This document shows, in pieces, positions 1,966 through 46,738 of a stretch of DNA of 64,000 nucleotides. The notes below the pieces were generated by a model. It ran no database searches. It worked only from the letters and a program-made list of their open reading frames with translations, and was not told the origin of the DNA. The position numbers were made by a program, and so were the translations under genes. Every line of letters begins with the position of its first letter. Positions within the stretch are counted from its first letter, which is position 1. Origin of the DNA: an uncultured Gammaproteobacteria bacterium (GTDB lineage Bacteria > Patescibacteriota > Microgenomatia > Levybacterales > UBA12049); NCBI GenBank assembly GCA_964523705.1, contig CAZFYA010000001.1, positions 3,388 through 67,387 on the forward strand, read 5' to 3'.

Positions 1966-3180
1966 ATGGATTGTAAAAACGCGAAAATTAGAATCCCCTA
2001 TGCTTTATCTGTTTACGATGAAAAAGAGATAAAACGAGTAGAAAAAGTACTAAGAGAACACCGGTCCAATATGGGGATTGAAACCCAGGAATTTGAGAAA
2101 AATGTTGCTAAGTATTTTTGTAAAAAATATGGCATTATGGTAAACTCCGGCTCTTCTGCAAATCTTTTAGCACTAGAATTACTAAACTTACCAAAAGGAT
2201 CTGAAATAATAACCCCTATTCTTACTTTTTCAACAACCATCTCTCCGATGATTAAAAAAGGACTTGTCCCAGTTTTTATTGACGTTGAAGAAGGAAAATA
2301 TATAGTTAACGTAGATCAAATTGAAAAGCTGATTACAAAAAAAACTAAAGCCTTAATGATTCCTCTTCTTTTTGGAAATGTACCAGATATGGAAAAATTA
2401 GCAAAAATTGCTAAAAAGCATAATCTTTTCTTTATCGAAGATTCTTGCGACACTCTTGGCGCAAAATATAAGAATAAACCCACAGGAAAATATTCAGATA
2501 TCACAACCACGAGTTTTTTTGGATCGCATATTATTACAGCCGGAGGGAATGGAGGAATGATTATGGTAAATAATCCAAAATGGAGAGATAGACTTAAAGT
2601 ACTTCGCGGTTGGGGAAGAAGCTCTTCTATCTTTAGTGAATCTGAGGATATATCAAAAAGATTTAAAGCTAAACTTGGAAAAATTCCCTACGATGCAAAA
2701 TTTCTTTTTGATGAAATCGGATATAATTTTCTCCCTTGTGAAATTGGTTCAGCCTTCGGCAACGAACAGTTAATAAAATTGCCAAAATTCAGAAAAACAA
2801 GAGAAAAAAATTTCAAAAGATTATGTAATTTCTTTAAGAAATATAATAATTTTTTTATAATCCCCCAGCAGGACAAGTTAGTAAAAACACAATGGCTTGC
2901 GTTTCCTTTAACGATTAAAAAAAATGCTCCTTTTTCAAGAATAGAGATAACGACATATCTTGAAAAAAATAATACGCAAACAAGACCGGTTTTTACAGGA
3001 AACATTTTAAAGCACCCAGGTTTTAAAAAAATACCAAGAAGATTAAACCCTAAAGGATACCCTGTCGCTGATGAAATTACAAAACAAAGTTTTGTAATAG
3101 GCTGCCATCACGGAATGAAAGAAAAACACCTTAATGCACTTGAAAATCTTTTTGATAAATTTTTAGCGAAATATAACTAG
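1966..3180 (+). CDS. rfbH: DegT/DnrJ/EryC1 family PLP/PMP enzyme, likely CDP-6-deoxy-4-keto-glucose 3-dehydrase (E1)
   Basis: DegT-family fold (MVNSGSSANLLALE; SFFGSHIITAGGNGG). His occupies the position of the usual Schiff-base Lys (SFFGSH rather than SFHxxK), as recalled for E1 dehydrases (recollection, not alignment). Divergently adjacent to rfbF/rfbG. Confidence 0.55.
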   Translation: MDCKNAKIRIPYALSVYDEKEIKRVEKVLREHRSNMGIETQEFEKNVAKYFCKKYGIMVNSGSSANLLALELLNLPKGSEIITPILTFSTTISPMIKKGLVPVFIDVEEGKYIVNVDQIEKLITKKTKALMIPLLFGNVPDMEKLAKIAKKHNLFFIEDSCDTLGAKYKNKPTGKYSDITTTSFFGSHIITAGGNGGMIMVNNPKWRDRLKVLRGWGRSSSIFSESEDISKRFKAKLGKIPYDAKFLFDEIGYNFLPCEIGSAFGNEQLIKLPKFRKTREKNFKRLCNFFKKYNNFFIIPQQDKLVKTQWLAFPLTIKKNAPFSRIEITTYLEKNNTQTRPVFTGNILKHPGFKKIPRRLNPKGYPVADEITKQSFVIGCHHGMKEKHLNALENLFDKFLAKYN

Positions 3181-3920
3181 TTTTTTTTATTAAAAACTGC
3201 ATTTCCAAGCCTATATCTTACAAAAATATTTATCGTATCTATAAACATCCAAAATGCTACGTTTATAAAATTAAAATAATTTATAGAGCTTTTTTTTAAA
3301 TTTACATTAATCGGCGCTTCAAAAATTTTTACATATCCTAATTTTTTAGCAATAACTAAAGACTCTATATCGAATGCAAAACCGTTAATTGTAATCTTAG
3401 AAAAGATTTTTTTAGCTATCTCTTTTTTAAATAATTTAAAACCAGCTTGAGTATCCTTAATTTTTAAATCAAATAGCATTTGAATAATAAATCTGTATCC
3501 TTTTGATAAAACTTTTCTAAAAAACGGGTATTTTATTCTAGATTTTGGATGAACTTTACTCCCAACTACGATATCTGCATTGTTCTTATTCATAACAGAC
3601 AACATCGTTGAAATTTCTTTTGGATTTAAATCCATTCCCGCATCCATAAAGCCGACTATTTCTTTACTTGCCTTTTCAACTCCGTATTTAATAGCATACC
3701 CTTTGCCTTTATTTTTTTTATATCCAAAAAGTTTAAAATCAGCTGTTTTTATTTTTTGTGCTTCTTTAAAAGTATTATCATTAAATCCGTCTACCACAAC
3801 AATTATTTCAAAATCAGATGATATCTTTTTTAATGCATTTTTTATTTCTTTAACCTGCTTAATAATTGTTTTTTCTTCTTTATAAGCAGGCACTATAAGG
3901 GAGATTGATTTTGAAGTCAT
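3177..3920 (-). CDS. GT2 polyprenyl-phosphate sugar synthase (Dpm1/GtrB/ArnC-like), soluble type
   Basis: SLIVPAYKEEKTI...VVVDGFNDNT...MDAGMDLNP (DxD)...DTQAGFKLF, typical of dolichyl/undecaprenyl-phosphate glycosyltransferases; 247 aa with no C-terminal TM. Confidence 0.7.
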   Translation of the reverse strand: MTSKSISLIVPAYKEEKTIIKQVKEIKNALKKISSDFEIIVVVDGFNDNTFKEAQKIKTADFKLFGYKKNKGKGYAIKYGVEKASKEIVGFMDAGMDLNPKEISTMLSVMNKNNADIVVGSKVHPKSRIKYPFFRKVLSKGYRFIIQMLFDLKIKDTQAGFKLFKKEIAKKIFSKITINGFAFDIESLVIAKKLGYVKIFEAPINVNLKKSSINYFNFINVAFWMFIDTINIFVRYRLGNAVFNKKN

Positions 3921-3923
3921 AAA

Positions 3924-4475
3924 CTAATCATTATCAGCTAATGCCTTTCTGACTAAATCCCATGAAAATGGTGTTCCGTCAGAAAGTTTTACACCAACTT
4001 CACTAAAAGGTTTTCTTCCTTCTTCTTTAGGATTATACAGGGCTGTTGGAAAATTAAATAGAATTGCCGGTTCCTTTGAGCTAACTAAAAATGCATGATA
4101 TGTATTTTTTGGAATTAATAATAAATATGGATCCTCCAGTGCATTTATTCTAAAAAGATTAACTACATCTTTTGTCTCAGAATTTTCTCTCTTATCTGCG
4201 ATCGCAATTATTACCTCTCCCTGAATTACACCCATTCTGTCTTCCTGAACTGTTGGGTGAAAATGCCAAACATCTTCATCTCTTGCCATGCCTGGTGGGG
4301 TAACTGAATAATACTGCATTGCAAATTCTCTTCCTTTACCGTAAATATCAGGCCAATTGGTTTTTAAAGTCTCAACAAGTACTCCTGAATCATCCTTATT
4401 TACTTTAAGAGGATACATTATTACGTCTTTTATTATTTTTTTTGAGTCTTTATTTTTTAAAGTAATAAATTCCAT
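3924..4475 (-). CDS. RmlC-like cupin sugar-nucleotide 3,5-epimerase
   Basis: 183-aa cupin with WHFHP...QGEVIIAIAD core; sits inside the NDP-sugar module; specificity (dTDP versus CDP substrate) cannot be resolved. Confidence 0.5.
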   Translation of the reverse strand: MEFITLKNKDSKKIIKDVIMYPLKVNKDDSGVLVETLKTNWPDIYGKGREFAMQYYSVTPPGMARDEDVWHFHPTVQEDRMGVIQGEVIIAIADKRENSETKDVVNLFRINALEDPYLLLIPKNTYHAFLVSSKEPAILFNFPTALYNPKEEGRKPFSEVGVKLSDGTPFSWDLVRKALADND

Positions 4476-4518: not shown

Positions 4519-5838
4519 CTAAAACCTGGAATTACTTGGGGATGCCAAATAATTTTTAATAATTTTAATACTTATATATTCCTTGGCAAAAGTAATTAAT
4601 AAGTAAAAAAGCAATAATAAAGACACTAAAAGTGATACTCCAATTACCTGAAAGAAACTGTTGTGGAAAATATATATTAATGCCACCTGAGCAATAGTTG
4701 TTGCAATTACCGGAATATATACCTTTGTTTTTCCAATTGATAGAAAAAAATTAACACAAACATTAAGGATGCTAAATATTGTCATAAATACTGCAAAAAA
4801 CCCAAGATATGGAACGATACTTAAATAATTTTTGCCTAAAAATATATTAATACTAAGCTCCGGCAGCAAGTAATAAAAAGCGGTTATTAAAACCGAAGGT
4901 AAAGTTACTAAAAATATTGCCAAATAAAAAAGACTAGCTATGTTTTCTCCCTTTTCCTTTCTTTTTACAACCAAAGGAAACATTACTAATGGAATTGAAT
5001 TAGTAAAATAAAAAATTACTCTTCCAATTAATGATAAACCTCCGTAAAGACCTGCCTGGACTGGATTAAAAAAATGCTTTACCAAAATTACATCCATTGT
5101 CATTAATGAAGTAAGTGAAAGTATAGAAAGACAAGCCGGTAAAGCATAAACAACTACTTCCTTTGTTTTAATACTTATTTTTTTATTGTCTTTTATTTTA
5201 AGCAAAGATTTAACGGGAATAAGATAAAGTATAAAAAAGATAATACCGGCAAGTATAATTGCCGTTAGTGCACCGAACACCCTAAAACCCAAAAACACTA
5301 ATACTACTCCGGAAATAAGCCTTACGAAAGCACTGCTAATTAAAGTTATTGCTACAAATGAAAACTTTAATAATCCCTGGGTAAAAGCTCCGCTTGGTAT
5401 ATAAATATAATAAACTACTATAGCAACTCCTGTTAAAACTATATACCAAACATTATCTATTCTTAAAAACTCTTTAATCGGAACAGAAAAAATTAAAAAA
5501 ATAATAAAAAATGCTAATGAAAATATTGCTACAGACTTAAGAGTCTTTTTAAGAAACTTAGAAGCCATTTCTATTTTATTTTGAGAAAAATAACCTGTGG
5601 CAAACTTAACAATAACAGTTGAAATTGATTGAGCCGGAGTTACAGCAATGAGTGTAAAAAGAGAAAGTAAGCTTGCATAAATACCGTAATCCGAAGTTGT
5701 TAAGTTTCTTGCAAAAAAAAGATTTAATATAAAAGCTAAAAAAGCAGAAAAAACAGAGCCTAAAAACATAAAAAAACTGCCTGTAATCAGTTCATGTTTT
5801 AAAAATCTTTTACTAAAATAGGAAATCTTACCTTTCAT
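4519..5838 (-). CDS. Wzx-like oligosaccharide flippase (MOP superfamily polysaccharide biosynthesis protein)
   Basis: 439 aa, about 12-14 predicted TM helices, N-terminal pattern typical of PF01943/PF13440 flippases. Confidence 0.65.
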   Translation of the reverse strand: MKGKISYFSKRFLKHELITGSFFMFLGSVFSAFLAFILNLFFARNLTTSDYGIYASLLSLFTLIAVTPAQSISTVIVKFATGYFSQNKIEMASKFLKKTLKSVAIFSLAFFIIFLIFSVPIKEFLRIDNVWYIVLTGVAIVVYYIYIPSGAFTQGLLKFSFVAITLISSAFVRLISGVVLVFLGFRVFGALTAIILAGIIFFILYLIPVKSLLKIKDNKKISIKTKEVVVYALPACLSILSLTSLMTMDVILVKHFFNPVQAGLYGGLSLIGRVIFYFTNSIPLVMFPLVVKRKEKGENIASLFYLAIFLVTLPSVLITAFYYLLPELSINIFLGKNYLSIVPYLGFFAVFMTIFSILNVCVNFFLSIGKTKVYIPVIATTIAQVALIYIFHNSFFQVIGVSLLVSLLLLFYLLITFAKEYISIKIIKNYLASPSNSRF

Positions 5839-6883: not shown

Positions 6884-7857
6884 TAAGACTTTTTCTTACT
6901 ATGCCATTGCCATGCGGATTTCACAATTGTTTCAATATCTGAGTATTGAGGCTTAAAACTTAATTCATTATTTATTTTACTTGGATCCGCAATTAACGTA
7001 TCTGCATCCCCTGGTCTTCTATCAACAATTTCTACTTTAAAATCTTCCCCTGTAACTTTTTTAACCGTATCTGTAATTTCTTTATTAGAATACCCATTTC
7101 CTGTTCCAACATTATAAAAGTAAGAACCAGGGTTTTTAATTAATTTATCTATTGCTAAAACGTGAGCCTCAACTAAATCCAATACGTGAATGTAATCCCT
7201 AACACAAGTCCCATCCTTTGTTTTATAATCTCCACCAAATAACTTGAAGGATCTTTTTTCTAAAACCGCATCTATTACATTAGGAATAATATGAGTTTCC
7301 GGCTCGTGCTGTTCTCCAAGTGATCCATCAAGAGCTGCTCCTGCTGCGTTAAAATACCTTAAGGCAGCAAAACTTAATCCTTTTGTCTTTTCGTACCAGG
7401 ATAATATTTTTTCTACCATTAATTTACTTTCTCCATATGGGTTTTCAGGATTTTTTGGATGATCTTCGGGGATTGGTAGCTTAATAGGATTTCCATAAAC
7501 TCCGGCTGTTGATGAAAAAACAATATTTTTTACCCCATTTTCTACTGCCGTCTGAATAATATTTAACGAACCGAAAGTATTATTTTGAAAATAGACATAG
7601 GGGTTTTCCATTGATTCTCCCATTGAAATATAGCCTGCAAAATGAATAATTGCATCAAACTTTTCTTTCGAAAAAACGCCTTCGAGAAATTTCTTATCTA
7701 AAATATTCCCCTCTTCAAAGCTTGCCCTATTATCTATTACACTTTTATGTCCTCTTTCTAGACTATCAATAATTGTTACATTATCGCCTTTTTCCAAAAG
7801 ACGCCTTACCATAAAGCCTCCAATATACCCAGCACCACCAGTTACTAAAATATTCAT
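6883..7857 (-). CDS. galE: UDP-glucose 4-epimerase
   Basis: [22 protein letters not shown]-terminus, YxxxK (YGESKLMVEK), and GalE-like length of 324 aa. Confidence 0.85.
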   Translation of the reverse strand: MNILVTGGAGYIGGFMVRRLLEKGDNVTIIDSLERGHKSVIDNRASFEEGNILDKKFLEGVFSKEKFDAIIHFAGYISMGESMENPYVYFQNNTFGSLNIIQTAVENGVKNIVFSSTAGVYGNPIKLPIPEDHPKNPENPYGESKLMVEKILSWYEKTKGLSFAALRYFNAAGAALDGSLGEQHEPETHIIPNVIDAVLEKRSFKLFGGDYKTKDGTCVRDYIHVLDLVEAHVLAIDKLIKNPGSYFYNVGTGNGYSNKEITDTVKKVTGEDFKVEIVDRRPGDADTLIADPSKINNELSFKPQYSDIETIVKSAWQWHSKKKS

Positions 7858-8624
7858 AAGATTAAGTATAATATATATGACACAGGAAATCTAAGAGCAG
7901 AAAATAAAGAAAAAACAAAACCAGCCCATAAATCCATAAACCCCTTATGCCTTATAAAGGTTAATAAAAACCAAAATATTGGCTTAATTAATAAATAATC
8001 AAAAAATGAAACGACTTTTAAGAAAATATTTTTCTTCGATTCTTTTTCTTTTATTTCCGCTGCAAATAAATTGTTATATAAATTCCATTTACTTAAATAA
8101 TGTTTAAAGTTTTTATATGGATAATGCAAAAGTGCACTCTTAAAATAACCTACTTTTCCATCTACTTCAGCTTGCTCGTGAACATCTTTTACAGGAAGTC
8201 TGCCTTTTCCTCTTTTATAAAATCTTAAAGTGTAATCAGGATATTGTCCGCCTTTAAGCAAGAACTTATGTATAAACCAATTTTTTCTCGGCATCCAATA
8301 TCCGCTAAATTCCTCACTCTCTTTTTTTAAAACCTCTTTTATCTCTTCTTTTAATTCTTTTGATACATGTTCATCCGCATCCATTTGCAATATCCAATCT
8401 TTAGTTGCCATATCAATAGCCATTTGTTTATTAATATGAAAATTAGGCTTATTAGTAGTTATTTTTACTTTTGCTTTGTACTTTTTTGCAATCTCTATTG
8501 TTTTATCAGTTGATGAACCATCAACAACAATAATCTCATCAGCAATATCTTTTAAACTATCAAGACAAGCGGCGAGATTTTTTTCTTCGTTATAAGTTGC
8601 TAGAACAACAGATAATGATTTCAT
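7854..8624 (-). CDS. GT2 glycosyltransferase, KdtX/LgtF-like
   Basis: LSVVLATYNEEKNLAACLDSL..DEIIVVDGSSTDKTIEIAKKY motif; paralog of 32580..33341 and 34257..35165. Confidence 0.7.
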   Translation of the reverse strand: MKSLSVVLATYNEEKNLAACLDSLKDIADEIIVVDGSSTDKTIEIAKKYKAKVKITTNKPNFHINKQMAIDMATKDWILQMDADEHVSKELKEEIKEVLKKESEEFSGYWMPRKNWFIHKFLLKGGQYPDYTLRFYKRGKGRLPVKDVHEQAEVDGKVGYFKSALLHYPYKNFKHYLSKWNLYNNLFAAEIKEKESKKNIFLKVVSFFDYLLIKPIFWFLLTFIRHKGFMDLWAGFVFSLFSALRFPVSYILYLIL

Positions 8625-8625
8625 A

Positions 8626-10263
8626 TTATGTGAATTTTCTTAATTTTATACTAAATAATACTACTATTGCCAGAAAAGATATAACGGATATCAAATTTGA
8701 AACTTTTCTTAGCTTTGTATCTTCATAAACAACTCTTACGTTATAACTTCCTTTATCTAAGTGAAAAGTCATAATTCCTCTGTATGTCATATTTTGAAAC
8801 TCTACATCAATTGGCTTATTATCAGCCGTTATCTTCCATCCCGGAAAATAAATAGTATTTTCCATAAATAAAGTATTCGTTCTTGCATCAATTTTATACA
8901 CATGCTCTGTGGTAGTTCTTTTTAATTCTAAAATGTCTGCATTACCATCAATAACCTCTAGGTGTGCCTTCGGTCTTTTTTCCATAAATCTAACAGACCA
9001 AATAGGAGAACTCTCCCCTGTATCTGTTGTACTCTCAAAAACACTTGTATAAAAAGACTCCGGTTTTATTAAGTATCCTTTTGGCTTCATATAATTTAAG
9101 CTTAATAAAAAAATAATTATCAACAAGAGTGGTATTATTATTTTTCTTAATTTTCCCTTTAGCAAAGAAACACTTAAAGCGCCAAGAAGAGAGGTAGAAA
9201 ATACAGTAATGGCTAAAAGCCTCCACGGAAATTGAAAGTTTTGCAAAACCATAATATTTCTCCAAATAAAATCAGATTCTTTTAACATCATAAATATTGC
9301 CACAAGCGAATACACTAATCCTCCTAAGAATAAATAGTAATTATCTTTTCTTTTCTTAAAAGAATAAAAAACAATAATTAAAGAGAAAACAATCGCTAAC
9401 CAATGAATCAAACCAAGCTGAAGAGTAAATTCTCCGGATTGACCATAACTCCATGGTCCATAAATTAAAGATTTAAAATCAACAAAGCGATTTACATATG
9501 TCCCTGAAGTTAGAACATTTCTTAAGGTATATTTTCCCTCAAAAAATGCAGGAACCCAAAAAAACGAAGATAAAGTAAAACCTAGTATGATTGAAAATCC
9601 TAATTTTACAATATATGATTTTTTAAATTTTAATTTTGACCAAAGAAAAATTCCATAAAATATTATAAAGGGCAAAAAGATTAAACTTAGAGCATTATGA
9701 GATAAAACCAAAAAAGCAAAAGATATTCCTAGAAATATCGAGTAAATATAATTTTCTTTCTTAAATAATTTATAAGTAAAATATAAAACCAAAGGTAACC
9801 AAATAAATGCAAAATTTTCCCCTATTGCTCCCCTAACATAAAGATCGACAAATCTATAGGGGGCATAGACATAAAGAACAGCACCAAAAACAGAAGCATC
9901 TTTTTTTAAAAATTGAGACAACCAAAGATACATAAAAATTCCTGATAGAAAAAAACCAAGCGCAAAAATAATTTTCGTTGAATCAACAAAATTAAAACCT
10001 ATTAAATGAAAAAATGAAGCAAAATATGAAGGTAGCGGATATAAAAACATTAAAATAGGATGCCCATATCCCCAATTAAGATTTCCTGCCCAACGAGGAA
10101 TAATATTCCCCTCAGATAAACTCTGATAAAAGTTAGCTATTCTTGCTACATGATCTCTTCCATCATGAGTATATGGTAATCCTTGATTTAACAACGAAAT
10201 AAGCGGAATAAGTAAAAATAAGACTAATACAATAAGCAAAAATTTGTTTTTAAACTTAGTCAT
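8626..10263 (-). CDS. Polytopic membrane protein, YfhO-related GT-C-like (family C, HD...FPxRW motif)
   Basis: 545 aa. N-terminal YTHDGRDHVARIANFYQSL...IPRWAGNLNWGYGHPILMFLYPL; C-terminal YFPGWKITADNKPIDVEF beta-sandwich motif shared with YfhO proteins; paralog of 37322..38803 and 39331..40860. Confidence 0.5.
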   Translation of the reverse strand: MTKFKNKFLLIVLVLFLLIPLISLLNQGLPYTHDGRDHVARIANFYQSLSEGNIIPRWAGNLNWGYGHPILMFLYPLPSYFASFFHLIGFNFVDSTKIIFALGFFLSGIFMYLWLSQFLKKDASVFGAVLYVYAPYRFVDLYVRGAIGENFAFIWLPLVLYFTYKLFKKENYIYSIFLGISFAFLVLSHNALSLIFLPFIIFYGIFLWSKLKFKKSYIVKLGFSIILGFTLSSFFWVPAFFEGKYTLRNVLTSGTYVNRFVDFKSLIYGPWSYGQSGEFTLQLGLIHWLAIVFSLIIVFYSFKKRKDNYYLFLGGLVYSLVAIFMMLKESDFIWRNIMVLQNFQFPWRLLAITVFSTSLLGALSVSLLKGKLRKIIIPLLLIIIFLLSLNYMKPKGYLIKPESFYTSVFESTTDTGESSPIWSVRFMEKRPKAHLEVIDGNADILELKRTTTEHVYKIDARTNTLFMENTIYFPGWKITADNKPIDVEFQNMTYRGIMTFHLDKGSYNVRVVYEDTKLRKVSNLISVISFLAIVVLFSIKLRKFT

Positions 10264-10264
10264 C

Positions 10265-13062: not shown

Positions 13063-13065
13063 GTT

Positions 13066-21731: not shown

Positions 21732-21733
21732 AA

Positions 21734-23434: not shown

Positions 23435-23450
23435 TTATAAAAATATATCT

Positions 23451-29995: not shown

Positions 29996-30024
29996 GTTTC
30001 TATTTTAGCAAGTTTATAATGCTA

Positions 30025-30054
30025 TTGCATTTACAAGAAGAGTAATAATATAAT
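30025..30054 (+). promoter_or_regulatory. Sigma70-like promoter (TTGCAT-N18-TATAAT) feeding a near-leaderless transcript for the 30061 gene
   Basis: TATAAT at 30049-30054 lies 6 nt before the ATG at 30061; no SD possible. Confidence 0.5.
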
Positions 30055-30060
30055 TAAGAT

Positions 30061-36621: not shown

Positions 36622-37321
36622 TGTTTAATTCCCTCCAAAGAGCAAAGCTTTCTCTTATGGCTCTTACTACTACTCTTAAGTTTCCTCCGCTTTGATCACC
36701 AAAAATTCTTGGATAGTGAAAAACTTCAACCTGATTAATTTTAAGTTTTTCCTTTTTTGCCTTTGCTAATATTTCAGTTGTAATCATTGCTCCCTCCGAA
36801 TGAAAAGGCATAATTCTATTTAGCGCCTCTTTTTTAAACAACTTAAAGCCGCAATCAATATCTCTAAAATAAAAACCAAAGAAAAACAAATCCCACACTT
36901 TTAAAAGATTCATAAGTACGTGTCTAAAAGGATTATCATTTCGTTTTTTCCTGTACCCAATTACCATATCAGCATTTTTAATTTTTTTTAAAAACTTTGG
37001 AAGCTCTGAAAAATCAAACTGCCCATCGCCGTCATTAAATACAACCAGATTATATTTTGCATTCTCAAAGCCTTCTCTTAAAGCAGCGCCATAACCTCTG
37101 TTTGGCTGATGAGTTATTGCTCTTAAATTTTCATTTTTTGAAGCTAAGTCTTTAGCGATTTTATAAGTATTATCATCTGAGCCGTCATCAATCATTAATA
37201 TTTCCCATTTTTTAGCGTACTTTTTAGCAATAGGAATGGCCTTTTCAACAACTTTTTCCAAGTTTTTTTCTTCATTCCAAAACGGAAAAAAGATTGATAA
37301 TTCATCTACCTTTTGTGTCAT
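36608..37321 (-). CDS. GT2 polyprenyl-phosphate sugar synthase (Dpm1/GtrB-like), soluble type
   Basis: LSIFFPFWNEEKNL...LMIDDGSDDNT...HQPNRGYGAALREGF...NDGDGQFD...IDCGFKLF; 237 aa. Confidence 0.75.
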   Translation of the reverse strand: MTQKVDELSIFFPFWNEEKNLEKVVEKAIPIAKKYAKKWEILMIDDGSDDNTYKIAKDLASKNENLRAITHQPNRGYGAALREGFENAKYNLVVFNDGDGQFDFSELPKFLKKIKNADMVIGYRKKRNDNPFRHVLMNLLKVWDLFFFGFYFRDIDCGFKLFKKEALNRIMPFHSEGAMITTEILAKAKKEKLKINQVEVFHYPRIFGDQSGGNLRVVVRAIRESFALWRELNSGRN

Positions 37322-38857: not shown

Positions 38858-39295
38858 TTAAGCAGAAGGTTGAAGGTTATTTTTTAAAAAATTTAAAAAA
38901 TGATTAGCTTGACCTATTGCATCTCTTGTATTTGTATAAACTCTGTCTTTTCTCCTACCATCATCATTTACATATGACCATTTGATTAAAGGCTCATCAG
39001 GGGATAAGACAACTTTTGAAGTATCATCATCTCCTCTAAGCTCAACTGAGATGCTTTTTCTTGGATCATATTTTACAATTACACCATGCTCGCTGCTTAA
39101 TCTAAATTCAACTAATCTAGTTTTATCCTCAGAATTAGCAGTAATTTCTTGATCGCTAAGAAGTGCTAATGCACTTGCTCTTTGAAACGCAGGAGATTTC
39201 ATTAATACTACTTTATAATTACTGTACAAGCCGTAAGCTTCTCTTGAAAGCTCTTCTTTTGGAAGTGACCTTTCAGCCATTTGTATTTCTGACAT
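38858..39295 (-). CDS. Hypothetical soluble protein (145 aa) embedded between family C paralogs
   Basis: No TM or recognisable motifs; has its own promoter (TTGACT-N18-TAAAAT) ending a few nt before the ATG. Confidence 0.5.
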   Translation of the reverse strand: MSEIQMAERSLPKEELSREAYGLYSNYKVVLMKSPAFQRASALALLSDQEITANSEDKTRLVEFRLSSEHGVIVKYDPRKSISVELRGDDDTSKVVLSPDEPLIKWSYVNDDGRRKDRVYTNTRDAIGQANHFLNFLKNNLQPSA

Positions 39296-39304: not shown

Positions 39305-39334
39305 ATTTTATGAAAAATTTAACCTAAAAGTCAA
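39305..39334 (-). promoter_or_regulatory. Sigma70-like promoter TTGACT-N18-TAAAAT for 38858..39295, near-leaderless; -35 embedded in the shared TCCCATAGTTGACTT element
   Basis: Minus strand reads AGTTGACTTTTAGGTTAAATTTTTCATAAAATATACTGATTATG. Confidence 0.5.
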
Positions 39335-40860
39335 CTATGGGACTTTTTGTATCTTAACTTAAATGCTAAGAATATTAATCCCAAAAATGAAACAAAAGAA
39401 ATGATATTTACTGTAAGTCTTAAATTTGTTTCTTTAAAATAAGCTTTAACAAAATGATTTCCCTTATTTAAATTAAATTGAATTAATCCAGAATCATTTT
39501 TATAACTAATCAAGACATTTTTATTATCAACTTCTAAAACCCATCCAGGATAATAGATTGTATTAATTGAGAGTAATGAATCTTTTTGTAAATCAGCATT
39601 AAAACTAACGCTATTTCCATTATTTATTAAATTAAAAACACTGCCTTCTCCTTTTAATATTTCTACCTTTTCATTTTTTGAAGAACTTGGGATTTCTTTT
39701 ACCCATTTTGGCATATATTCATTTTTAACAGTTGTTGTGTCTTGGTTTGTTGAATAAAAAGTATCTGGATAGTTTGTAAAACCTTTAGGATAGATAAAAT
39801 CTTTAGCATCAAAAATTAATAAAAATAAATAAATAATTATTAAAATTTTTTTATTTCTTCCCTTTAGGAAATTTAGCTGAAATGCTACAAAAAATGCTGT
39901 TGTTAAAATTAAAACTGAAATTAATCTAAATGGAAATTGAATAAAACTTGAAAACAAAGGCCATAAGAATGAGGAGATTGGAAAAATTAAAAAAAGACAA
40001 ACTACAGAAACTATAAAAAATAACCAATAATTTTTATCTTTTATTCTTCTAAAGATTAAAAAAGTTAACAAGAAAGAAAGTAAAAACACTAAACCAATCA
40101 GGTTTATATTCTGTAAATTTACAAAATACTCTGAAAAGTCGGATACCAAAACCTTATCAAAAATTACAAATCTTTTCTCTATAAGCGCCGGCAACCAGAA
40201 AAAACTGGACATTCCAAGGCCAAAAACTAAGCTGAATAATATTTTTTTAATATCTTTTTTTGAAAGGTAATAATAAATAAGAATTATCGGTAAAAACAGC
40301 AAAGCCAAGCTGTTATGAGAAAGAATAAGAAGTGCTATACCAATTGATATAAAAAATAGACTTTGTCTTTCTATTTGCCATAAGATAAACGGAACAATAG
40401 CCAATGCCAAGACCTCACCAACTGATCCTCTTTTATAAACATCCCATAAATGATATGGAAAATATAAATAAACCAATGAACCGATAAGGGATGATAAGTT
40501 ATCAAACTTTTTTCTAAGCCAAAGAAGTGAAAAAACAGCAGAAGATAATAGACTTATTCCAAAAATTATTTTTATCGTACTGACAAAACTAAAACCTAAT
40601 ATATGAATAGGTGTACCGATATACATAAATAACGGATATAAAAAGTTGGCAACCGGATAACCAAAACCGTTATTAAGTCTTGCTAAAAACCTTACCGGAA
40701 ATTGACCGTTTCTTAAGGCTTCATAAAATGCTGAAAATCGAATAATCATCCAGTTCCCATCATCAGTTACAAAAAATCCAGGCTTTAAAAGAGCGAAAAC
40801 TGAAGGAATGGATAAAATTAAAACAATAATTAAATATTTCAAAAGTTTCTTATTTTTCAT
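39331..40860 (-). CDS. Polytopic membrane protein, YfhO-related GT-C-like (family C)
   Basis: 509 aa. FFVTDDGNWMIIRFSAFYEALRNGQFPVRFLARLNNGFGYPVANFLYPL; C-terminal IYYPGWVLEVDNKNVLISY. Confidence 0.5.
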   Translation of the reverse strand: MKNKKLLKYLIIVLILSIPSVFALLKPGFFVTDDGNWMIIRFSAFYEALRNGQFPVRFLARLNNGFGYPVANFLYPLFMYIGTPIHILGFSFVSTIKIIFGISLLSSAVFSLLWLRKKFDNLSSLIGSLVYLYFPYHLWDVYKRGSVGEVLALAIVPFILWQIERQSLFFISIGIALLILSHNSLALLFLPIILIYYYLSKKDIKKILFSLVFGLGMSSFFWLPALIEKRFVIFDKVLVSDFSEYFVNLQNINLIGLVFLLSFLLTFLIFRRIKDKNYWLFFIVSVVCLFLIFPISSFLWPLFSSFIQFPFRLISVLILTTAFFVAFQLNFLKGRNKKILIIIYLFLLIFDAKDFIYPKGFTNYPDTFYSTNQDTTTVKNEYMPKWVKEIPSSSKNEKVEILKGEGSVFNLINNGNSVSFNADLQKDSLLSINTIYYPGWVLEVDNKNVLISYKNDSGLIQFNLNKGNHFVKAYFKETNLRLTVNIISFVSFLGLIFLAFKLRYKKSHS

Positions 40861-43222
40861 AAATTTTTTTAAAAGACAAAAGATAAATTAGAAAAAGTAT
40901 TAGCGCAACAAGTGATACTTTAATTCCAACGTCAAATGAGTAAGGATAATAATTCATTACCAGTTTATGTTCTCCTTTTAGAATAGGTACTGCTCTAAAG
41001 CTATAATTTGCCTTATATATTTTTACTTCTTTCCCATCAATAAAAGCTCTCCATCCTGGAAAATAGTTATCAGAAATAAAAAATAAGGCATTTTCATCTG
41101 TTGTTATTTCAAATTCAACCCTATTTGGCTCATATACTAAAAGTTTTATATTGCTATCAGTTATTTCTCCAAGTTTAATGTTTGGTTTTTCTTCTAAAAT
41201 TAAGGTTTTTCTTAAATCAATATTCTCATCATAAATTTTTGCTATTCTTTTTTCTTTTTCTTTTACAACTTTAAAGTCGCTTGCAAGATAAAATCTATCA
41301 AACACATTTTTATTCTCGTAAATCTGCCAAGGTTTTTTTTGCCAAACTAGCTCATATGACTTTTGAGGAAACGTAATGTAATCAGGTTCTATTTTTTCTG
41401 TTAATAAATCGTTTTTATGTAAAACATACTTTATTCCAAGTAAATTAATAAGTCTTTGCCGATAATTATTTGTTTTTAAATCCGTATCACCGTAACCTGG
41501 TGCAATGTTTGCATCAGGCCTTGGCAAAACTTCTGGTAATTCTCCATATTTTGATGCTGCCAGTAATTCTCCGTAGGATGAGATATGCAAGGGATCGTTT
41601 CCTTCAGGAGAAAAGGTCTTATCAACGCTTTGAAAGTTGGGTGGGATATAACCTGAACCATATCCCCAAAATCTACTTATATTTGCATTTTCCTTTAAGA
41701 AGCTTACAACTTCTGTTTTAGGATAAGTAAAGCTGCTTGGTGAAAAAGGAGTTATTTTATTAAAGAAATAAAAGAAATCAAAAACAAGAATAATAGTTAT
41801 TAAAACTAAACTTACTTTTTTTAATCTATTTTTAAGATAAAAAATGACAACAGTTGCAAAAACTAAAGCTGTTGGCAAAATCATGTTTCTTATTGCAACT
41901 TTAAAATTAATATCTGTTAAGAAACCAAGTTTATAAATTATAAAAACAATTGGAAAAATTAAAATTAAAAGAAGAAAAAAGAAAATTGGATATTTTGTTT
42001 TATTTTTATTCTCCATCCAGTAATTTATTCCCATTGCTCCTAGAACTATTACTGAAAAAATAAAAATACTAAGCTCCCTGGTTGGAATTGTTGTTGAGAT
42101 AACCGGAATAGGAAGTAAATAAAAATATTTAACAAGCGGAATATTTGTTGCAATTATTAAAGATACTGCTGCCAGAATAGCAAAAAACTTTTTATTAATA
42201 TCCTTTACTTTAAAAATGGCAAAAATTGCAAAAAATAAGATAATTACTCCCGGATACATTACTCTTTCAATATATGTCCCATCAAGATAGTAGTTTCTGC
42301 TTGCCGGATTTCCAAAAAAATCAGGAAAAACTACAGTTATCCAGTAATAAATTGGGGCTAGACTTTTTGAGAATTGAGCTAATGAGTAAGAACCCCTGGT
42401 TGAGTTTCTAAATATTTCAAGTGTTGGAAGTAGCTGAAATAAAGATAAAATTATTGGAAAAATTAAAGCACTTAAAAAAACAATGCCTTTTTTAATTTTA
42501 TTTTTAATCTTTTTTGAAAACAATAAAAAGAGAAAATATAAAACACAAACTGTATAAACATAGAAAAATCCCTGAATATAACCTGCCAGAAAACTTAAAG
42601 TAAAAACAATTACTAATAATAGAAAATCCTTAAGGCTTATTTTTTCAACTATTCTTTTTATTAAAAGCAAAGCTAAAGGAAGATAGGAAATAGTTGATGC
42701 GATATTTCCATACTGAATCCAAACCACCATATACGATGAAAAAGCAAAAGCTATCCCGCCTAAAACAGAAGCAAGTTTTTTAAGTCCTATTCCTCTATTT
42801 AGAAGCAGGAACATAAATACTGCTGCCAAAAGAGGCTGAAGCATTATAAAAATAGCAAAGGAGATATTAAACGGAAAAACAAAAAAGATTAAATTAAGAG
42901 GGTAAAATACAGCTGTTTGAAAATTAGCCATTTGCACATTTCCTGAAAAGTTATAAGGATTCCAAAAAGGAATATTACCATTTTTTAATTCTTCAATTGA
43001 AAAATATTTCCAAGGATAAATTTCTGTGATAACATCTGCTCCTTGAGCTTTATTAGGATAGCTTCCCGGTAAATATCCTAAAAAAGATTCAGAAGAATAA
43101 GGATTTGTATTTATTAATAAGTCTCCTGGAAATGGAATATATCCTTTAAAAATAGGGTTGAAAAAAAATAAAACAATAAAAAGAATTAATAAAAACGGAT
43201 AAAATTTTTTAAAAAATTTCAT
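40850..43222 (-). CDS. YfhO-family GT-C membrane glycosyltransferase (family D)
   Basis: 790 aa. EIYPWKYFSIEELKNGNIPFWNPYNFSGNVQMANFQTAVFYPLN; C-terminal YFPGWRAFIDGKEVKIY...FRAVPILKGEHKLVM. Confidence 0.7.
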   Translation of the reverse strand: MKFFKKFYPFLLILFIVLFFFNPIFKGYIPFPGDLLINTNPYSSESFLGYLPGSYPNKAQGADVITEIYPWKYFSIEELKNGNIPFWNPYNFSGNVQMANFQTAVFYPLNLIFFVFPFNISFAIFIMLQPLLAAVFMFLLLNRGIGLKKLASVLGGIAFAFSSYMVVWIQYGNIASTISYLPLALLLIKRIVEKISLKDFLLLVIVFTLSFLAGYIQGFFYVYTVCVLYFLFLLFSKKIKNKIKKGIVFLSALIFPIILSLFQLLPTLEIFRNSTRGSYSLAQFSKSLAPIYYWITVVFPDFFGNPASRNYYLDGTYIERVMYPGVIILFFAIFAIFKVKDINKKFFAILAAVSLIIATNIPLVKYFYLLPIPVISTTIPTRELSIFIFSVIVLGAMGINYWMENKNKTKYPIFFFLLLILIFPIVFIIYKLGFLTDINFKVAIRNMILPTALVFATVVIFYLKNRLKKVSLVLITIILVFDFFYFFNKITPFSPSSFTYPKTEVVSFLKENANISRFWGYGSGYIPPNFQSVDKTFSPEGNDPLHISSYGELLAASKYGELPEVLPRPDANIAPGYGDTDLKTNNYRQRLINLLGIKYVLHKNDLLTEKIEPDYITFPQKSYELVWQKKPWQIYENKNVFDRFYLASDFKVVKEKEKRIAKIYDENIDLRKTLILEEKPNIKLGEITDSNIKLLVYEPNRVEFEITTDENALFFISDNYFPGWRAFIDGKEVKIYKANYSFRAVPILKGEHKLVMNYYPYSFDVGIKVSLVALILFLIYLLSFKKIYEK

Positions 43223-44754
43223 TAATCTTTGGGCGGAATAACTTTATAAACTCTATATAAATAATCACTGTTCCCCATTTTTACTTGAAAAACCAGCTCA
43301 AGTGGATAATCTTTGGAAATTACCTGATTGTTTGGCTGATAAAAAACAAAAAAAGTTGGCATTTTTTCCGAGTATTCAATTACTTCTTTGGGAAGCTGGT
43401 GTTCAACAGGCCAATACCCTTTAATTGTTATATTTTTGTTATCTATTAAATAAAGCTCCAAAGATAAAGGCATTAATCCAAAAGTTCCCTCGGTTGCTAT
43501 AAAAATCTTTTTGTCTTCCCCCTCTTTTTTAAAGAATTCAATACTTTCCTTAACTCCCCATCCGGCTGACCAGCTATTAATATATTGCCTGCTGTCACTT
43601 TTAGCTATTGGGGCATTAACAGGGTCTTTGGCAATTGAAAAAGAGACAAAAGCGGGATAAGAAATAAAAATAACTGCTACTATTACATAAACTAAGGCTA
43701 CTTTCTTTTTTATCTTTAATTTTTTATTTACAAACTGAATCACTTCATTTAAAGACCAGGCAGCAAGAGGAAGCAAGAATACGCTCATGAAAAAGATAAA
43801 TCTTGGAAAGATTACCTTTCCAAAAAGAGCAAGGGCTAAAAACGGTAATAAAAAGTAAATTATTAAAAGTATTTTTTCTTTTGTAAATTTATAAATAAAA
43901 ATTAAAGAAAGAATAATTAGCAAGATATAAGGAATTGTTAAATAACTAAGTAGCCAATCAAAAAGACCATATAAGTTGCCGATGAAAAAAGTAAAAGGAT
44001 GATTTATCCACTCGGAAAACGGATAAACAAAAGTTGCATTTTTGGTTTGAATCATTTGAAAAAGAGGAGAAAGACGAAGCATGTTATAAATAACCTGAGC
44101 AATAATTACAGAAAGCAAAGCAAAGAAAACCCACTTAAAAAATCTTTTTAAGAAATCTTTTTTTGAAAAGTTAAAAAGAAGAATGGTAAACGGTAAAAGA
44201 TAAAGACTGAAAAAATTACTGCTTTTAGTCAATGCTCCAAGTCCGGCAGTAATTCCCAAGGTATACATCACGCTTAATTTTGTTTTTCTTACTAAAAGAA
44301 TAGAAAAATATAAAGCAAGAATAGAAAATGTAGCAACCATGCTATCCATTAAGGCCATTCGATCATTTATTTGGGCAAACGGATAAAAAACATAAAGAAA
44401 TGAAGTTAAATAAGCAATTTTTCTGTTTTTAAACAACTCAAGCGATAAAAAGAAAAGCCCAATTAGTGTTAAAAATCCAGTTAATACAGAAACCAGTCTT
44501 GCTGCAATTAAAGGATCTTTAATAAATTTCATAAAAACCATTGCTACCCAAACAAAAAGAGGCTGTTTACCATCAGTTAATGAAATAAAACGCCAATTTG
44601 CATCATTTAAGGCAATTTGTGCCCACCTGGTATAAATTGCTTCATCTGTAAAAATAGGCATTGAGGAAAAATAGATTAAGCGAAGGAAAAAATAGGAAGC
44701 CACTAATAATAAAATTGTTATGATTTCCAAAAGGTTTTTTTTAATAAAGGGCAT
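43222..44754 (-). CDS. PMT/ArnT-family GT-C glycosyltransferase (family A, ArnT-like)
   Basis: 510 aa. SSMPIFTDEAIYTRWAQIAL DE-motif loop followed by many TM helices. Confidence 0.6.
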   Translation of the reverse strand: MPFIKKNLLEIITILLLVASYFFLRLIYFSSMPIFTDEAIYTRWAQIALNDANWRFISLTDGKQPLFVWVAMVFMKFIKDPLIAARLVSVLTGFLTLIGLFFLSLELFKNRKIAYLTSFLYVFYPFAQINDRMALMDSMVATFSILALYFSILLVRKTKLSVMYTLGITAGLGALTKSSNFFSLYLLPFTILLFNFSKKDFLKRFFKWVFFALLSVIIAQVIYNMLRLSPLFQMIQTKNATFVYPFSEWINHPFTFFIGNLYGLFDWLLSYLTIPYILLIILSLIFIYKFTKEKILLIIYFLLPFLALALFGKVIFPRFIFFMSVFLLPLAAWSLNEVIQFVNKKLKIKKKVALVYVIVAVIFISYPAFVSFSIAKDPVNAPIAKSDSRQYINSWSAGWGVKESIEFFKKEGEDKKIFIATEGTFGLMPLSLELYLIDNKNITIKGYWPVEHQLPKEVIEYSEKMPTFFVFYQPNNQVISKDYPLELVFQVKMGNSDYLYRVYKVIPPKD

Positions 44755-44799: not shown

Positions 44800-45972
44800 T
44801 TATTTACTAAATCTTTTAAATGGAAAAATAAAGGAGAACAAAAGAAAAACTAAAGGAGTAATAATAGTTACGTAAAGTTTTATTGGAATAACTATTCCGC
44901 TCCAGTCCCCTTGATATAAAAATGGAGCATATCTTAGCAAAAGCCCCAATGTTAAACCAAGAATAAAAAATAATAAATGCCTCTTTAGTTTTATTAACGC
45001 TAAAAAGGGCATAACCCATAAAAAATACCAAGGCTGTACTTCAATTTTGGTTAATACAAAAACAAAACCCAGAATTGAAAATAAGACGCAAAGTTTTAAA
45101 AAGGTATCACTGCTGATTTTTATTTTCTTAACATAATTTGCTAAGAAATATAAAAGTATCGGAATAGCTAAAACTATCATTACTTCTTTTGTAAGATAAG
45201 AAAAAACAATAAATAAAATACTTAAAATCCACCTCTTTTTTAAGGCATAAAAAACGGAACACAGGGCAAAAAACATCATTGCGATGTCATTATGTCCTGA
45301 TACCAAACATTCAATTAAAATCAAGGGGTTAAGTGCAAAAAAAGCTAAATTAAAATTTAAATTCTTACTGTCAATTGTTTGTAAAATCTTTTTAATAACA
45401 AAACAGGAACCAAGGTACAAAACAGCTGCTAAGGCTTTAAAAAGAATAAGAGTTGGTAAGAAAAAATTTAAACCGATAAACGATAAAGGAATAGTTAATA
45501 CTAACCAAATTGGGCCATACGGATAAACTCTATGCGTCCAATGCATAAATGAAAGCATCGGATCACCTGGAAAATCTAAAGGCTTAAAAAGATAGGGGTT
45601 TTGACCGTAATGGGTAAAAATCTTGGCATCAAAAACATAATTAAATAAATCGTAAGAAAACGCATTGTATGACAAAAGTAAAATTCCAGCTGATAAAAAA
45701 ATAAGCTTTGTAATTTGTTTTAAGCTAATTTTATTTTTATGCGTTTTATACAAAGTATAAAAATATAATCCAAATAATAAAACTAATATTGCTAAAAATA
45801 AATAAGTTGATAAAGGCCGATTAAAATAACCAACGTACTGAAAGCTCTTTTGAATTCCCTGCCAGATAGATACTTTTGATAAGGTTAAGCTTAAATCAAC
45901 TTGGGTAAAAGAATATAAAAAAAGACTAAAAAGTATTACCGCGTATCCTATAAATAATCCTTTAAATTTCAT
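44800..45972 (-). CDS. Polytopic membrane protein, possible GT-C (DUF2029/GT87-like) or polymerase-like
   Basis: 390 aa, about 10-12 TM; conserved-looking MHWTHRVYPYGPIWL loop; family assignment uncertain. Confidence 0.35.
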   Translation of the reverse strand: MKFKGLFIGYAVILFSLFLYSFTQVDLSLTLSKVSIWQGIQKSFQYVGYFNRPLSTYLFLAILVLLFGLYFYTLYKTHKNKISLKQITKLIFLSAGILLLSYNAFSYDLFNYVFDAKIFTHYGQNPYLFKPLDFPGDPMLSFMHWTHRVYPYGPIWLVLTIPLSFIGLNFFLPTLILFKALAAVLYLGSCFVIKKILQTIDSKNLNFNLAFFALNPLILIECLVSGHNDIAMMFFALCSVFYALKKRWILSILFIVFSYLTKEVMIVLAIPILLYFLANYVKKIKISSDTFLKLCVLFSILGFVFVLTKIEVQPWYFLWVMPFLALIKLKRHLLFFILGLTLGLLLRYAPFLYQGDWSGIVIPIKLYVTIITPLVFLLFSFIFPFKRFSK

Positions 45973-45982
45973 TATTGAGGTT

Positions 45983-46738
45983 TTAATTATATTTTCCTTT
46001 AATAATATTATTTCTTATCTTTATTAAATCCAAAAAACCATTTATTGAATCATTAACAGGACTTACTCTTCTTGTTTCAACATAAAGCCACTTAACAGGA
46101 ACTTCCTTAATCTTGTAATTTCTTTTTTGGGCAAGATACAAAAGCTCCACGTCAAAACCGGCTGTTACAGATGAGCCTGAAATATGCTTAAAACCATTGT
46201 GAATTTTTTTAATTTTCTCAAAAAGATCCTCGGTTGCTTTTTTGTTAAATATTTTAAAACCGCATTGAGTATCACTAATTCCTATAACGCCAACTATTAC
46301 TGTTCTAAGTAAAATCATTCCTTTTGCCATTACTGCTCTTGTAAAAGGAGCTCCTTTTCGCTGAGAATTTCTGCTGCCGATAACAATATCATAACCTTCT
46401 TTTAAAAAAGGTAAAAGTTTATCAACTTCTTCAATTGGAGTAGCCTGATCCATGTCAGTAAACAACCTATATTCTCCTTTTGCTTCAAGCATTCCGGTTG
46501 TTACAGCTCCTGCTTTTCCCATGTGTGAATTTTTAATTAACCTGAATTTTTTGTTAGTTTTAACAAAATTTTCAATAAATTCAATACTTTCATCATCTGA
46601 TCCATCATCAACAATTACCACTTCATATTCAAATTTTTCCTTATTTAAAAAACTCTCTATTTTATCCAATACTCCTTTTTGAAGATTTGCCATTTCGTTA
46701 TAACATGGGATTACAACTGAGAGGTAAATTTTGCTCAT
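45983..46738 (-). CDS. GT2 polyprenyl-phosphate sugar synthase (Dpm1/GtrB-like), soluble type
   Basis: IYLSVVIPCYNEMANL...VVIVDDGSDDES...GKAGAVTTGMLEAKGEYRLFTDMDQATP...DTQCGFKIF; first gene of the minus-strand cluster. Confidence 0.75.
   Translation of the reverse strand: MSKIYLSVVIPCYNEMANLQKGVLDKIESFLNKEKFEYEVVIVDDGSDDESIEFIENFVKTNKKFRLIKNSHMGKAGAVTTGMLEAKGEYRLFTDMDQATPIEEVDKLLPFLKEGYDIVIGSRNSQRKGAPFTRAVMAKGMILLRTVIVGVIGISDTQCGFKIFNKKATEDLFEKIKKIHNGFKHISGSSVTAGFDVELLYLAQKRNYKIKEVPVKWLYVETRRVSPVNDSINGFLDLIKIRNNIIKGKYN

Follow-up and report, generated by a model that had tools for sequence, protein, structure and literature searches.

The closest described relatives of the genes reported here belong to three-component systems for extracytoplasmic glycosylation, in which a synthase makes a lipid-linked sugar, a flippase moves it across the membrane and a polytopic glycosyltransferase of the GT-C type spends it; the GtrB, ArnC and CsbB systems follow this logic (PMC11127046). 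In Streptococcus pyogenes the genes for GacI, GacJ, GacK and GacL, responsible for the N-acetylglucosamine (GlcNAc) side chain of the group A carbohydrate, lie together. GacI, a putative cytoplasmic family 2 glycosyltransferase (GT2), is active in the membrane fraction and makes sugar-phosphate-undecaprenol, GacK is the proposed flippase and GacL the GT-C enzyme (bioRxiv 10.1101/180810). Here we present an analysis of four GT2 genes, named A, B, C and D, in a 64,000-nucleotide stretch of a Levybacterales genome (assembly GCA_964523705.1, contig CAZFYA010000001.1, positions 3,388 to 67,387), in the following called the window. They share a co-directional locus of about 47 kb with 17 GT-C genes, and with a probability of roughly 70% they encode paralogous polyprenyl-phosphate glycosyltransferases of the DPM1/GtrB/ArnC/GacI type, free of transmembrane (TM) helices, that feed the GT-C enzymes of the locus.

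One GT-C gene of the window, gene C and the adjacent gene for the flippase candidate Wzx2 give the same parts list as the Gac system. The window differs from it in having four synthases and 17 GT-C enzymes instead of one each; no GacJ-type partner and no DPM2 or DPM3 homologues were recognised in the window, whose small two-TM DUF5652 protein is unrelated to GacJ. In PfDPMS, the type III dolichol-phosphate mannose synthase of Pyrococcus furiosus, the interface helices IFH1 and IFH2 and the residues Arg117, Arg131 and Ser135 hold the dolichyl chain and its phosphate; a form lacking the TM domain (delta230-352) is still targeted to membranes and equals the full-length protein in activity, and human DPM1 has no TM helices (Gandini et al., PMC5526996). 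A to D resemble PfDPMS and the type II enzyme human DPM1 in the GT-A fold, the two interface helices and the equivalents of Glu12, Asp39, Asp89 and Asp154, whereas the DADLQH motif and Lys178 of these synthases are absent; with a bacterial host the carrier is presumably not dolichol. GtrB, ArnC and CsbB belong to the same predicted reaction class, and C is closest to ArnC. Enzymes of this type end in a pair of TM helices, and GtrB and ArnC are multimers in their solved structures, whereas A to D stop before the TM hairpin.

Paralogous synthases in one cell-wall polysaccharide cluster are known from Streptococcus mutans, where SccN and SccP make sugars linked to undecaprenyl phosphate (Und-P), each for its own GT-C enzyme, SccM and SccQ (PMC11754754). 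There are two such pairs in that cluster, compared with four synthases and 17 GT-Cs in the window. Mycobacterial Ppm1 and PpgS feed polyprenyl-phosphate sugars to many GT-Cs of lipomannan/lipoarabinomannan (LM/LAM) and arabinogalactan assembly, as we propose for the window; here the likeness extends to a GT-C beside D that is weakly similar to MptA/MptB and to best profile matches of A and B with PpgS and the archaeal-type AglJ, at scores far below the cut-offs. The mycobacterial genes are scattered over the genome, unlike the single co-directional locus of the window, and AglJ of Haloferax primes an N-glycan rather than making a donor. YfhO-type GT-Cs, which also occur in the window, are reportedly part of the CsbB/YfhO and GtlA/GtlB systems.

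The predicted mechanism is of the known three-component kind, as in the GtrB, ArnC, CsbB and GacI systems, with TM-less synthases as in human DPM1 and GacI. What sets the locus apart is its size and its conservation, with four families of synthases, 17 GT-C genes and an order kept across the 80 Levybacteria species loci examined. The first-pass annotation, made from the sequence of the window, had counted two flippase candidates and 17 GT-C genes, both correctly, and had spoken of unusual complexity; this is true in comparison with the characterised systems, but among Levybacteria species the arrangement is the norm. Levybacteria and other bacteria of the Candidate Phyla Radiation (CPR) are uncultured and have very small genomes; as they presumably live attached to hosts, their surface chemistry is central to their biology. 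A literature search on glycosylation in CPR bacteria and Levybacteria returned nothing relevant and no description of the locus. The locus implies that lipid-linked monosaccharides are the building blocks from which much of the envelope glycan is assembled outside the membrane, and the small, TM-less proteins A to D, which should be comparatively easy to express and assay, offer a practical entry to CPR surface glycans.

The four probable synthases and their relatives

The four genes (Table 1) had been annotated as GT2 enzymes of about 240 amino acids with a DPM1/ArnC/GtrB-type layout and no C-terminal TM anchor. All of this was confirmed: the open reading frames (ORFs) are present on the minus strand, sequence, motifs and predicted fold agree with the enzyme type, and hydropathy scans agree with the missing anchor. 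The catalytic domain PF00535 (GT-A/GT2) was recognised in all four with E-values from 3e-23 to 6e-39. Each synthase has hundreds to thousands of homologues with 50-90% identity in CPR/Levybacteria assemblies, so A to D are real genes. Over their full length they share 29-33% pairwise identity, which excludes near-identical recent duplicates and, as far as sequences can tell, makes them old paralogues; by the same measure they are set well apart from the five other GT2s of the locus (e to i).

PDB searches by sequence gave PfDPMS (5mlz) as best match of A (E 1.8e-19), B (E 3.5e-18) and D (E 4.4e-17) and ArnC (9bhc) as best match of C (E 1.1e-18), with GtrB next (E 7.6e-15 for D). Identity to characterised enzymes is about 21-30%. 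The HMMER alignment of B is collinear with native residues 1-227 of PfDPMS, and a MAFFT alignment that includes reference segments from the PDB shows all four proteins to be collinear with PfDPMS and to stop just past IFH2. Structure models and Foldseek comparisons covered A and D, B and C being compared by sequence. The AlphaFold2 (AF2) models of A and D, with predicted local distance difference test (pLDDT) values of 87.8 and 87.5, consist of a GT-A core of alternating beta strands and alpha helices and two long helices. Their top 25 Foldseek matches in the PDB are solely ArnC, PfDPMS and GtrB (E 4e-16 to about 1e-10), and query-normalised TM-scores range from 0.59 to 0.77.

The best NCBIfam matches are likewise polyprenyl-phosphate enzymes, namely PpgS/PgfS for A, AglJ for B (124.9 bits), ArnC for C and PgfS for D, and not ordinary GT2 transferases, an outcome that the first-pass annotation had allowed for; all scores are below the cut-offs. 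C scores 80.1 bits with the ArnC model NF007986 (cut-off 529) and has no C-terminal TM helices, and it is therefore not an ArnC equivalog. With the haloarchaeal dolichol-phosphate-hexose transferase model A to D score 32-55 bits (cut-off 375). Judged by these profiles, A to D do not count as equivalogs of any characterised enzyme. Automatic names given by the Joint Genome Institute (JGI) include 'dolichol-phosphate mannosyltransferase' for some B homologues and 'dolichyl-phosphate beta-glucosyltransferase' for some D homologues. A neighbour-joining tree with three partial PDB sequences as references separates the A, B, C and D families into four clean clades; the backbone is unresolved and unreliable, with one unrelated GT2 drawn near B, and orthology of A to D to DPMS, ArnC or GtrB cannot be claimed. 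For annotation the gain is four separable orthologous families that are now labelled only 'glycosyltransferase family 2'.

Active-site positions were compared by alignment and are numbered as in PfDPMS. The equivalents of Glu12, Asp39, Asp89 and Asp154 are invariant in A to D. The DXD motif is present as DAD in B, DGD in C and DMD in D; residues 93-97 of A read DAGMD, so that Gly takes the place of the metal-binding Asp91 and Asp that of the metal ligand Gln93. The pattern D[AS]G[MRT]D occurs in all 120 A homologues among the matches listed, which argues for a selected variant and not for decay. Arg117 is matched by Arg in B, C and D and by Lys in A, Arg131 by Arg in A, C and D and by Ile in B, and Ser135 has an equivalent in A only. 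At the position of His94 the four proteins have Leu, Tyr, Phe and Thr, and at that of Lys178, a mannose contact, Asp, Glu, Met and Asp, respectively. The signature of bona fide DPMS (EC 2.4.1.83), DADLQH with the His94 and Lys178 contacts, is thus kept by none of them, and the sugar-contacting positions 93, 94 and 178 differ among the paralogues.

Kyte-Doolittle scans detected no TM segment in A, B and C; the sole hydrophobic helix of D is internal (residues 134-155) and aligned with IFH1 of PfDPMS. Helices are predicted at the positions of IFH1 and IFH2 in the AF2 models of A (133-150 and 215-246) and D (132-148 and 227-246), and A to D end where PfDPMS delta230-352 ends. The proteins had been called soluble. 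Since both interface helices are kept and a PfDPMS truncation with the same end is active and targeted to membranes, they are, to judge from sequence, probably monotopic membrane enzymes instead. Such a TM-less architecture is known and common. In the C family it is the most frequent form: of the 150 best-matching representatives at 50% identity, 75 have at most 270 amino acids and no TM segment, and 15 are GtrB/ArnC-like with at least two TM segments.

It is very improbable that A to D are ordinary GT2 enzymes which act on soluble, protein or nascent glycan acceptors and resemble Dpm1 only through a shared GT-A fold. The lack of a TM anchor and the non-canonical metal motif of A would suit such enzymes, and the soluble GpgS appears in the Foldseek list of A from rank 26 (E about 1e-10), but it does so behind 25 polyprenyl-phosphate enzymes, and the alignments run through both interface helices. 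Fusions of C-type GT2s to GT-C domains, described below, also speak against it. The same searches give a different picture for the other five GT2s of the locus, which shows that the Dpm1-type assignment is specific to A to D and not a general GT2 effect: they resemble the Dpm1 type over no more than about 100 residues at the N-terminus, and GT2 i has the protein and peptide glycosyltransferases GmaR and SunS as its best PDB matches.

By pairwise identity the other GT2s group as e, g and i and as f and h. A fusion of e to a GT-C-like domain in relatives had brought up e, g and i as additional donor synthases, but for the two reasons just given they were rejected; the GmaR/SunS match of i hints at cytoplasmic protein or peptide glycosylation by these three enzymes, or at another acceptor class. 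They are paralogous, with 27-38% mutual identity. GT2 e has 256-287 amino acids in the window and in the related loci L003, L085 and L086, the window copy ending with two hydrophobic segments, and about 765 amino acids in L002 (2564-4861), L087 (3825-6113) and L088 (2554-4854), with a weak C-terminal PMT_2 match in L002 and L088. An extra PMT_2 gene for 396 amino acids in these last two loci has no counterpart in the window.

Conserved gene order, fusions and flippase candidates

For comparison, 80 loci from different GTDB species were annotated by BLASTP against the window proteome. Look-ups of the exact sequence of the window's B protein and of the identical P0001 retrieved no record, and gene context was taken from relatives. 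The A to D families co-occur on the same long contigs of assemblies named Levybacteria, Levyibacteriota, Microgenomates or Patescibacteria. Among the matches listed, identity in Levybacteria-type assemblies is 50-77% for A, mostly 65-72% for B, which is very strongly conserved in the lineage, and 67-94% for D; species-level relatives of C are 61-75% identical, the closest GTDB species relative 75%. The order kept is D, GT87-like, PMT_2, YfhO, PTPS, PTPS, C, Wzx2, GT2i, GT2h, GT2g, YfhO, GT4b, YfhO, GT2f, B and the GT-C array. The synthase genes had been described as dispersed, which is true within the window, but each of them has a fixed, conserved position and is not placed haphazardly. A GT87/MptA-B-like GT-C gene stands directly after D in 29 of 29 loci. 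On the upstream side of C, 78 of the 80 species loci have the orthologue of the PTPS-type GT-C gene 37322-38803; on the downstream side Wzx2 is the next gene in each of the 78 loci long enough to show it. In the window the last 14 bp of C are also the first 14 bp of Wzx2, and an overlap of this length recurs in 38 of these loci. A GT-C gene comes after B in the window as well as in each of the 8 related loci with a B gene. The module GT2e, GalE, GT4a, Wzx1, (cupin), A is kept in L002, L003 and L085-L088.

Many public metagenome-assembled genome records with a Levybacteria-type locus are titled 'uncultured Gammaproteobacteria bacterium' (L005, L015-L017, L036, L038, L047 and others; binchicken/SRP co-assemblies), and two further ones Deltaproteobacteria and Eisenbacteria. 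These records are probably mislabelled or mis-binned.

Genetic coupling to GT-C genes is seen both in the synteny of C and D and in gene fusions of the C family. Long polytopic forms, with more than 450 amino acids and at least six hydrophobic segments, make up 25 of the 150 best representatives of this family. Pfam scans of ten long C-family proteins revealed an N-terminal C-type GT2 fused to PMT_2 (P0362, P0364, P0407) or to YfhO (P0395), which is direct genomic evidence that this type of GT2 works with GT-C enzymes. P0363, also of the C family, is a tandem GT2-GT2 protein.

In the proposed mechanism the DXD site of each synthase (DxGxD in the case of A) would hold a nucleoside diphosphate sugar with a divalent metal, and the site equivalent to Arg117 and Arg131 the phosphate of a polyprenyl carrier, and the reaction would give a polyprenyl-monophosphate sugar. 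The sugar-lipid would then be flipped, for A and C plausibly by the adjacent MOP/Wzx-like proteins, and spent by the 17 GT-C enzymes of the locus on extracytoplasmic acceptors. Each synthase gene has a conserved module of its own: D with the MptA/B-like GT-C; the PTPS-type GT-C with C and Wzx2; GT2f and B with the PMT_2 array; and GT4a, Wzx1 and A beside a strain-variable sugar-nucleotide region. The locus has two MOP/Wzx-like genes, each of which abuts a synthase gene, Wzx1 that of A and Wzx2 that of C. A flippase role of the two proteins is reasonable by analogy, if unproven: GacK, a Wzx family member encoded beside GacI, is the proposed GlcNAc-P-Und flippase (bioRxiv 10.1101/180810) and a MATE-family flippase has been proposed for undP-Ribf (PMC11127046), both proposals being themselves unproven.

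Several observations weigh against the assignment of A to D as donor synthases. Their activity is a prediction from sequence, and none of them reaches an NCBIfam equivalog cut-off. A lacks the second Asp of the DXD motif and has Lys for Arg117; B lacks equivalents of Arg131 and Ser135 in the alignment, where an N-R-S stands two to three residues off; and the Lys178 contact is absent from all four. Analysis of hydrophobic moments did not separate the putative interface helices from other helices. The flippase candidates are of the Wzx type alone, and Wzx proteins classically flip diphosphate-linked oligosaccharides; no GtrA/SMR-type flippase gene is present in the window, and the coding density leaves no space for a small GtrA-like ORF. 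Finally, there is room for a priming role, as no priming phosphoglycosyltransferase gene (PF00953 or PF02397; WecA/MraY or WbaP type) was found across the whole window, and some C-family proteins of about 700 amino acids (P0376, P0379, P0385; 43-47% identity to C) are fusions of an N-terminal GT4 with a C-terminal GT2.

These last two points would be accounted for if one or more of the four, most likely C and/or A, acted like archaeal AglJ, their polyprenyl-phosphate sugar serving as primer for a monophosphate-linked oligosaccharide that is built by GT4 and GT2 enzymes, flipped by Wzx and transferred or polymerised by GT-C enzymes. The window holds two GT4, five non-Dpm1 GT2 and two Wzx genes to go with such a pathway, nearly all species show translational coupling of C and Wzx2 with three genes for cytoplasmic GT2s behind them, GT4a, Wzx1 and A form a conserved module, and AglJ itself is the best NCBIfam match of B. 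We nevertheless regard priming as unlikely, because primers of Wzx pathways are often encoded elsewhere, which makes their absence from the window weak evidence, and because GT-C fusions are commoner in the C family than GT4 fusions: the best 150 representatives include 25 long polytopic proteins, compared with three confirmed fusions to GT4 and a few further candidates of this kind. The GacI/GacK/GacL precedent explains the adjacency of GT2 and Wzx genes without priming. To our knowledge, moreover, the assembly of oligosaccharides on a monophosphate-linked carrier is established in Archaea rather than in Bacteria.

Number of donors and the strain-variable end

If A to D are donor synthases, the most likely number of distinct donors, differing in sugar or anomer, is at least two or three. 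The first-pass annotation had suggested up to four; this is possible but unproven, as four genes need not mean four sugars and none has an equivalog match. The identity of 29-33%, the four clades, the differences at positions 93, 94 and 178, the differing JGI names of the B and D families and the ArnC-like character of C speak for distinct donors. Profiles assign no sugar: all NCBIfam scores fall far short of the cut-offs, and the top-ranking models vary by paralogue without being diagnostic. The labels gained by homology also conflict, the GT-C beside the 'glucosyl' D being weakly mannosyltransferase-like.

A set of donors smaller than the set of genes, with at least two of the synthases making the same sugar-lipid or just different anomers of it and each channelled to its own GT-C partners, is a possibility that we consider but do not favour. 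In S. mutans SccN and SccP both use UDP-glucose and Und-P and differ in the anomer made, giving beta- and alpha-Glc-P-Und for SccM and SccQ (PMC11754754), which advises caution in counting sugars by genes. No sugar-specific signature could be assigned to any of A to D by profiles or alignment, and the nucleotide-sugar genes of the locus comprise just one dedicated pathway, for a CDP-hexose, and galE. Against fewer donors stand the low identity of the paralogues, their differing sugar-contacting positions and automatic names, and the co-variation of A with a variable region of sugar genes.

A is the fastest-evolving of the four synthases. In the closest relative, where B is 87% and D 93% identical, A has 60% and Wzx1 71% identity, compared with 84-85% for GT2e, GalE, GT4a and the cupin. 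The genes downstream of A differ in nearly every genome examined. CDP-hexose genes are found there in the window, in L002 and partly in L086; L087 has genes for DegT and an FdtA/hexapeptide-repeat protein, L085 for DegT and epimerases, L003 for pyruvyl- and methyltransferases, and L088 for cytidylyltransferase-like and Glyphos_transf (glycerophosphotransferase-type) proteins and a second Wzx. The region is hypervariable in a serotype-like manner. Since A and Wzx1 adjoin this region and evolve faster than the genes around them, A most likely acts, on sequence evidence, as a specificity gene that carries a strain-specific donor. A modified dideoxyhexose had been named earlier as one possible donor sugar; for A the neighbouring CDP-glucose pathway genes give this some support from context, but the neighbourhood varies between strains.

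More tentatively, the four synthases can be seen as supplying the donors for a lineage-wide assembly line for glycans, encoded in about 47 kb, in which at least three distinct polyprenyl-phosphate sugars would feed six GT-C subfamilies, Wzx/MOP proteins would flip monosaccharide-lipids, and A with its DxGxD motif, Wzx1 and the hypervariable sugar genes would set a strain-specific, serotype-like surface glycan. If true, this would be a CPR counterpart of mycobacterial LAM and arabinogalactan assembly or of O-antigen seroconversion, and it would take several percent of a Levybacteria genome of sub-megabase size to 1.6 Mb; the longest contigs of assemblies with the locus measure about 0.55 to 1.6 Mb.

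Extra small Dpm1-like GT2 genes, about 30% identical to C, A or B, are present in variable regions of three relatives (L002, 17210-17914; L086, from 20211; L088, from 14981), so the number of synthases per locus differs between strains. In L002 one follows the CDP-glucose dehydratase gene; at the corresponding left edge of the window (1-260) no fifth Dpm1-like gene was found.

Further features of the locus

The G+C content of the window is about 29%. From position 46738 down to 186 nearly all genes are read from the minus strand, and adjoining genes overlap or are separated by a few bases. D is the first gene of the locus after lon, and beyond 47.5 kb follow housekeeping genes that include lon, gltX, recJ and metK. 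Pfam and NCBIfam profile scans of the window ORFs identified nine GT2 and two GT4 genes in the locus, and GalE scores above its equivalog cut-off. The coordinates of the features are listed in Table 1.

Table 1. Features of the glycosyltransferase locus, with positions in the window
Feature	Position	Strand	Remarks
CDP-glucose 4,6-dehydratase-like	186-1169	-	NCBIfam TIGR02622, 214.7 bits, best match, below cut-off
Glucose-1-phosphate cytidylyltransferase-like	1133-1909	-	NCBIfam TIGR02623, 272.6 bits, best match, below cut-off
RfbH-like	1966-3180	+	NCBIfam NF011936, 342.7 bits, best match, below cut-off
A, GT2, Dpm1-like	3177-3920	-	247 aa, ATG start, PF00535
RmlC-like cupin	3924-4475	-	NCBIfam best match, below cut-off
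Wzx1, MOP/Wzx-like flippase candidate	4519-5838	-	PF13440, PF01943; in GT4-Wzx1-(cupin)-A module
GT2 e	7854-8624
Array of ten GT-C genes and one methyltransferase gene	8626-24953	-	Pfam: PMT_2, PTPS_related; directly downstream of B
Class I S-adenosylmethionine-dependent methyltransferase	21132-21731	-	inside the GT-C array
B, GT2, Dpm1-like	24972-25688	-	238 aa, ATG start, PF00535 (134 bits), motif DADLEY
GT2 f	25689-26633
Two YfhO-type GT-C (26637-28928, 30259-32580) either side of GT4b (28925-29995)	26637-32580	-	PF09586, E 5e-25 and 6e-33; order kept in relatives
DUF5652	30061-30297	+	78 aa, two TM, PF18893, E 2.4e-24
GT2 g	32580-33341
GT2 h	33338-34255
GT2 i	34257-35165
Wzx2, MOP/Wzx flippase candidate	35167-36621	-	PF13440, E 1.5e-51; NCBIfam MOP flippase family matches
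C, GT2, ArnC-like	36608-37321	-	237 aa, ATG start, PF00535, motif DGDGQ
GT-C, PTPS_related/PMT_2-like, candidate consumer for C	37322-38803	-	PF10131, E 4.7e-13
Three GT-C between C and D: PTPS_related (39331-40860), YfhO (40850-43222), PMT_2 (43222-44754)	39331-44754	-	Pfam
GT-C, weakly GT87/MptA-MptB-like, candidate consumer for D	44800-45972	-	PF09594 below cut-off; NCBIfam MptA E 2.9e-11, MptB E 1.4e-7, both below cut-off
D, GT2, Dpm1/ALG5-like	45983-46738	-	251 aa, ATG start, PF00535, motif DMDQA

The 17 polytopic GT-C-like proteins are of the PMT_2, PTPS_related and YfhO types, with one weakly GT87/MptA-B-like protein. Thirteen exceed a curated Pfam cut-off (PMT_2, PMT, PTPS_related or YfhO). 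PMT_2 scores of 18057-19670 and 37322-38803 are just under the cut-off, the latter passing PTPS_related, and all GT87 and MptA/MptB matches of 44800-45972 are sub-threshold. The proteins 11554-13062 and 23451-24953 have no Pfam match but share 28-42% identity with the PMT_2 paralogue 19654-21135. Proteins of the array downstream of B have approximately 8-16 hydrophobic segments each. The methyltransferase gene inside this array has a counterpart at the same place in the related locus L001 (67% identity), which points to a product with methylated sugars or lipids.

Two further ORFs, orf145 (38858-39295) and orf182 (46896-47444), were checked as conserved partners, and neither was found in related loci. 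The DUF5652 gene is the sole conserved opposite-strand gene within the locus and is transcribed divergently where the two runs of genes part. It is present in 54 of the fetched loci, always on the opposite strand, and lies at most 400 bp upstream of GT4b in 46 of 51. It is pure speculation that its product could be a small membrane partner for the TM-less synthases, like DPM2/DPM3 or GacJ.

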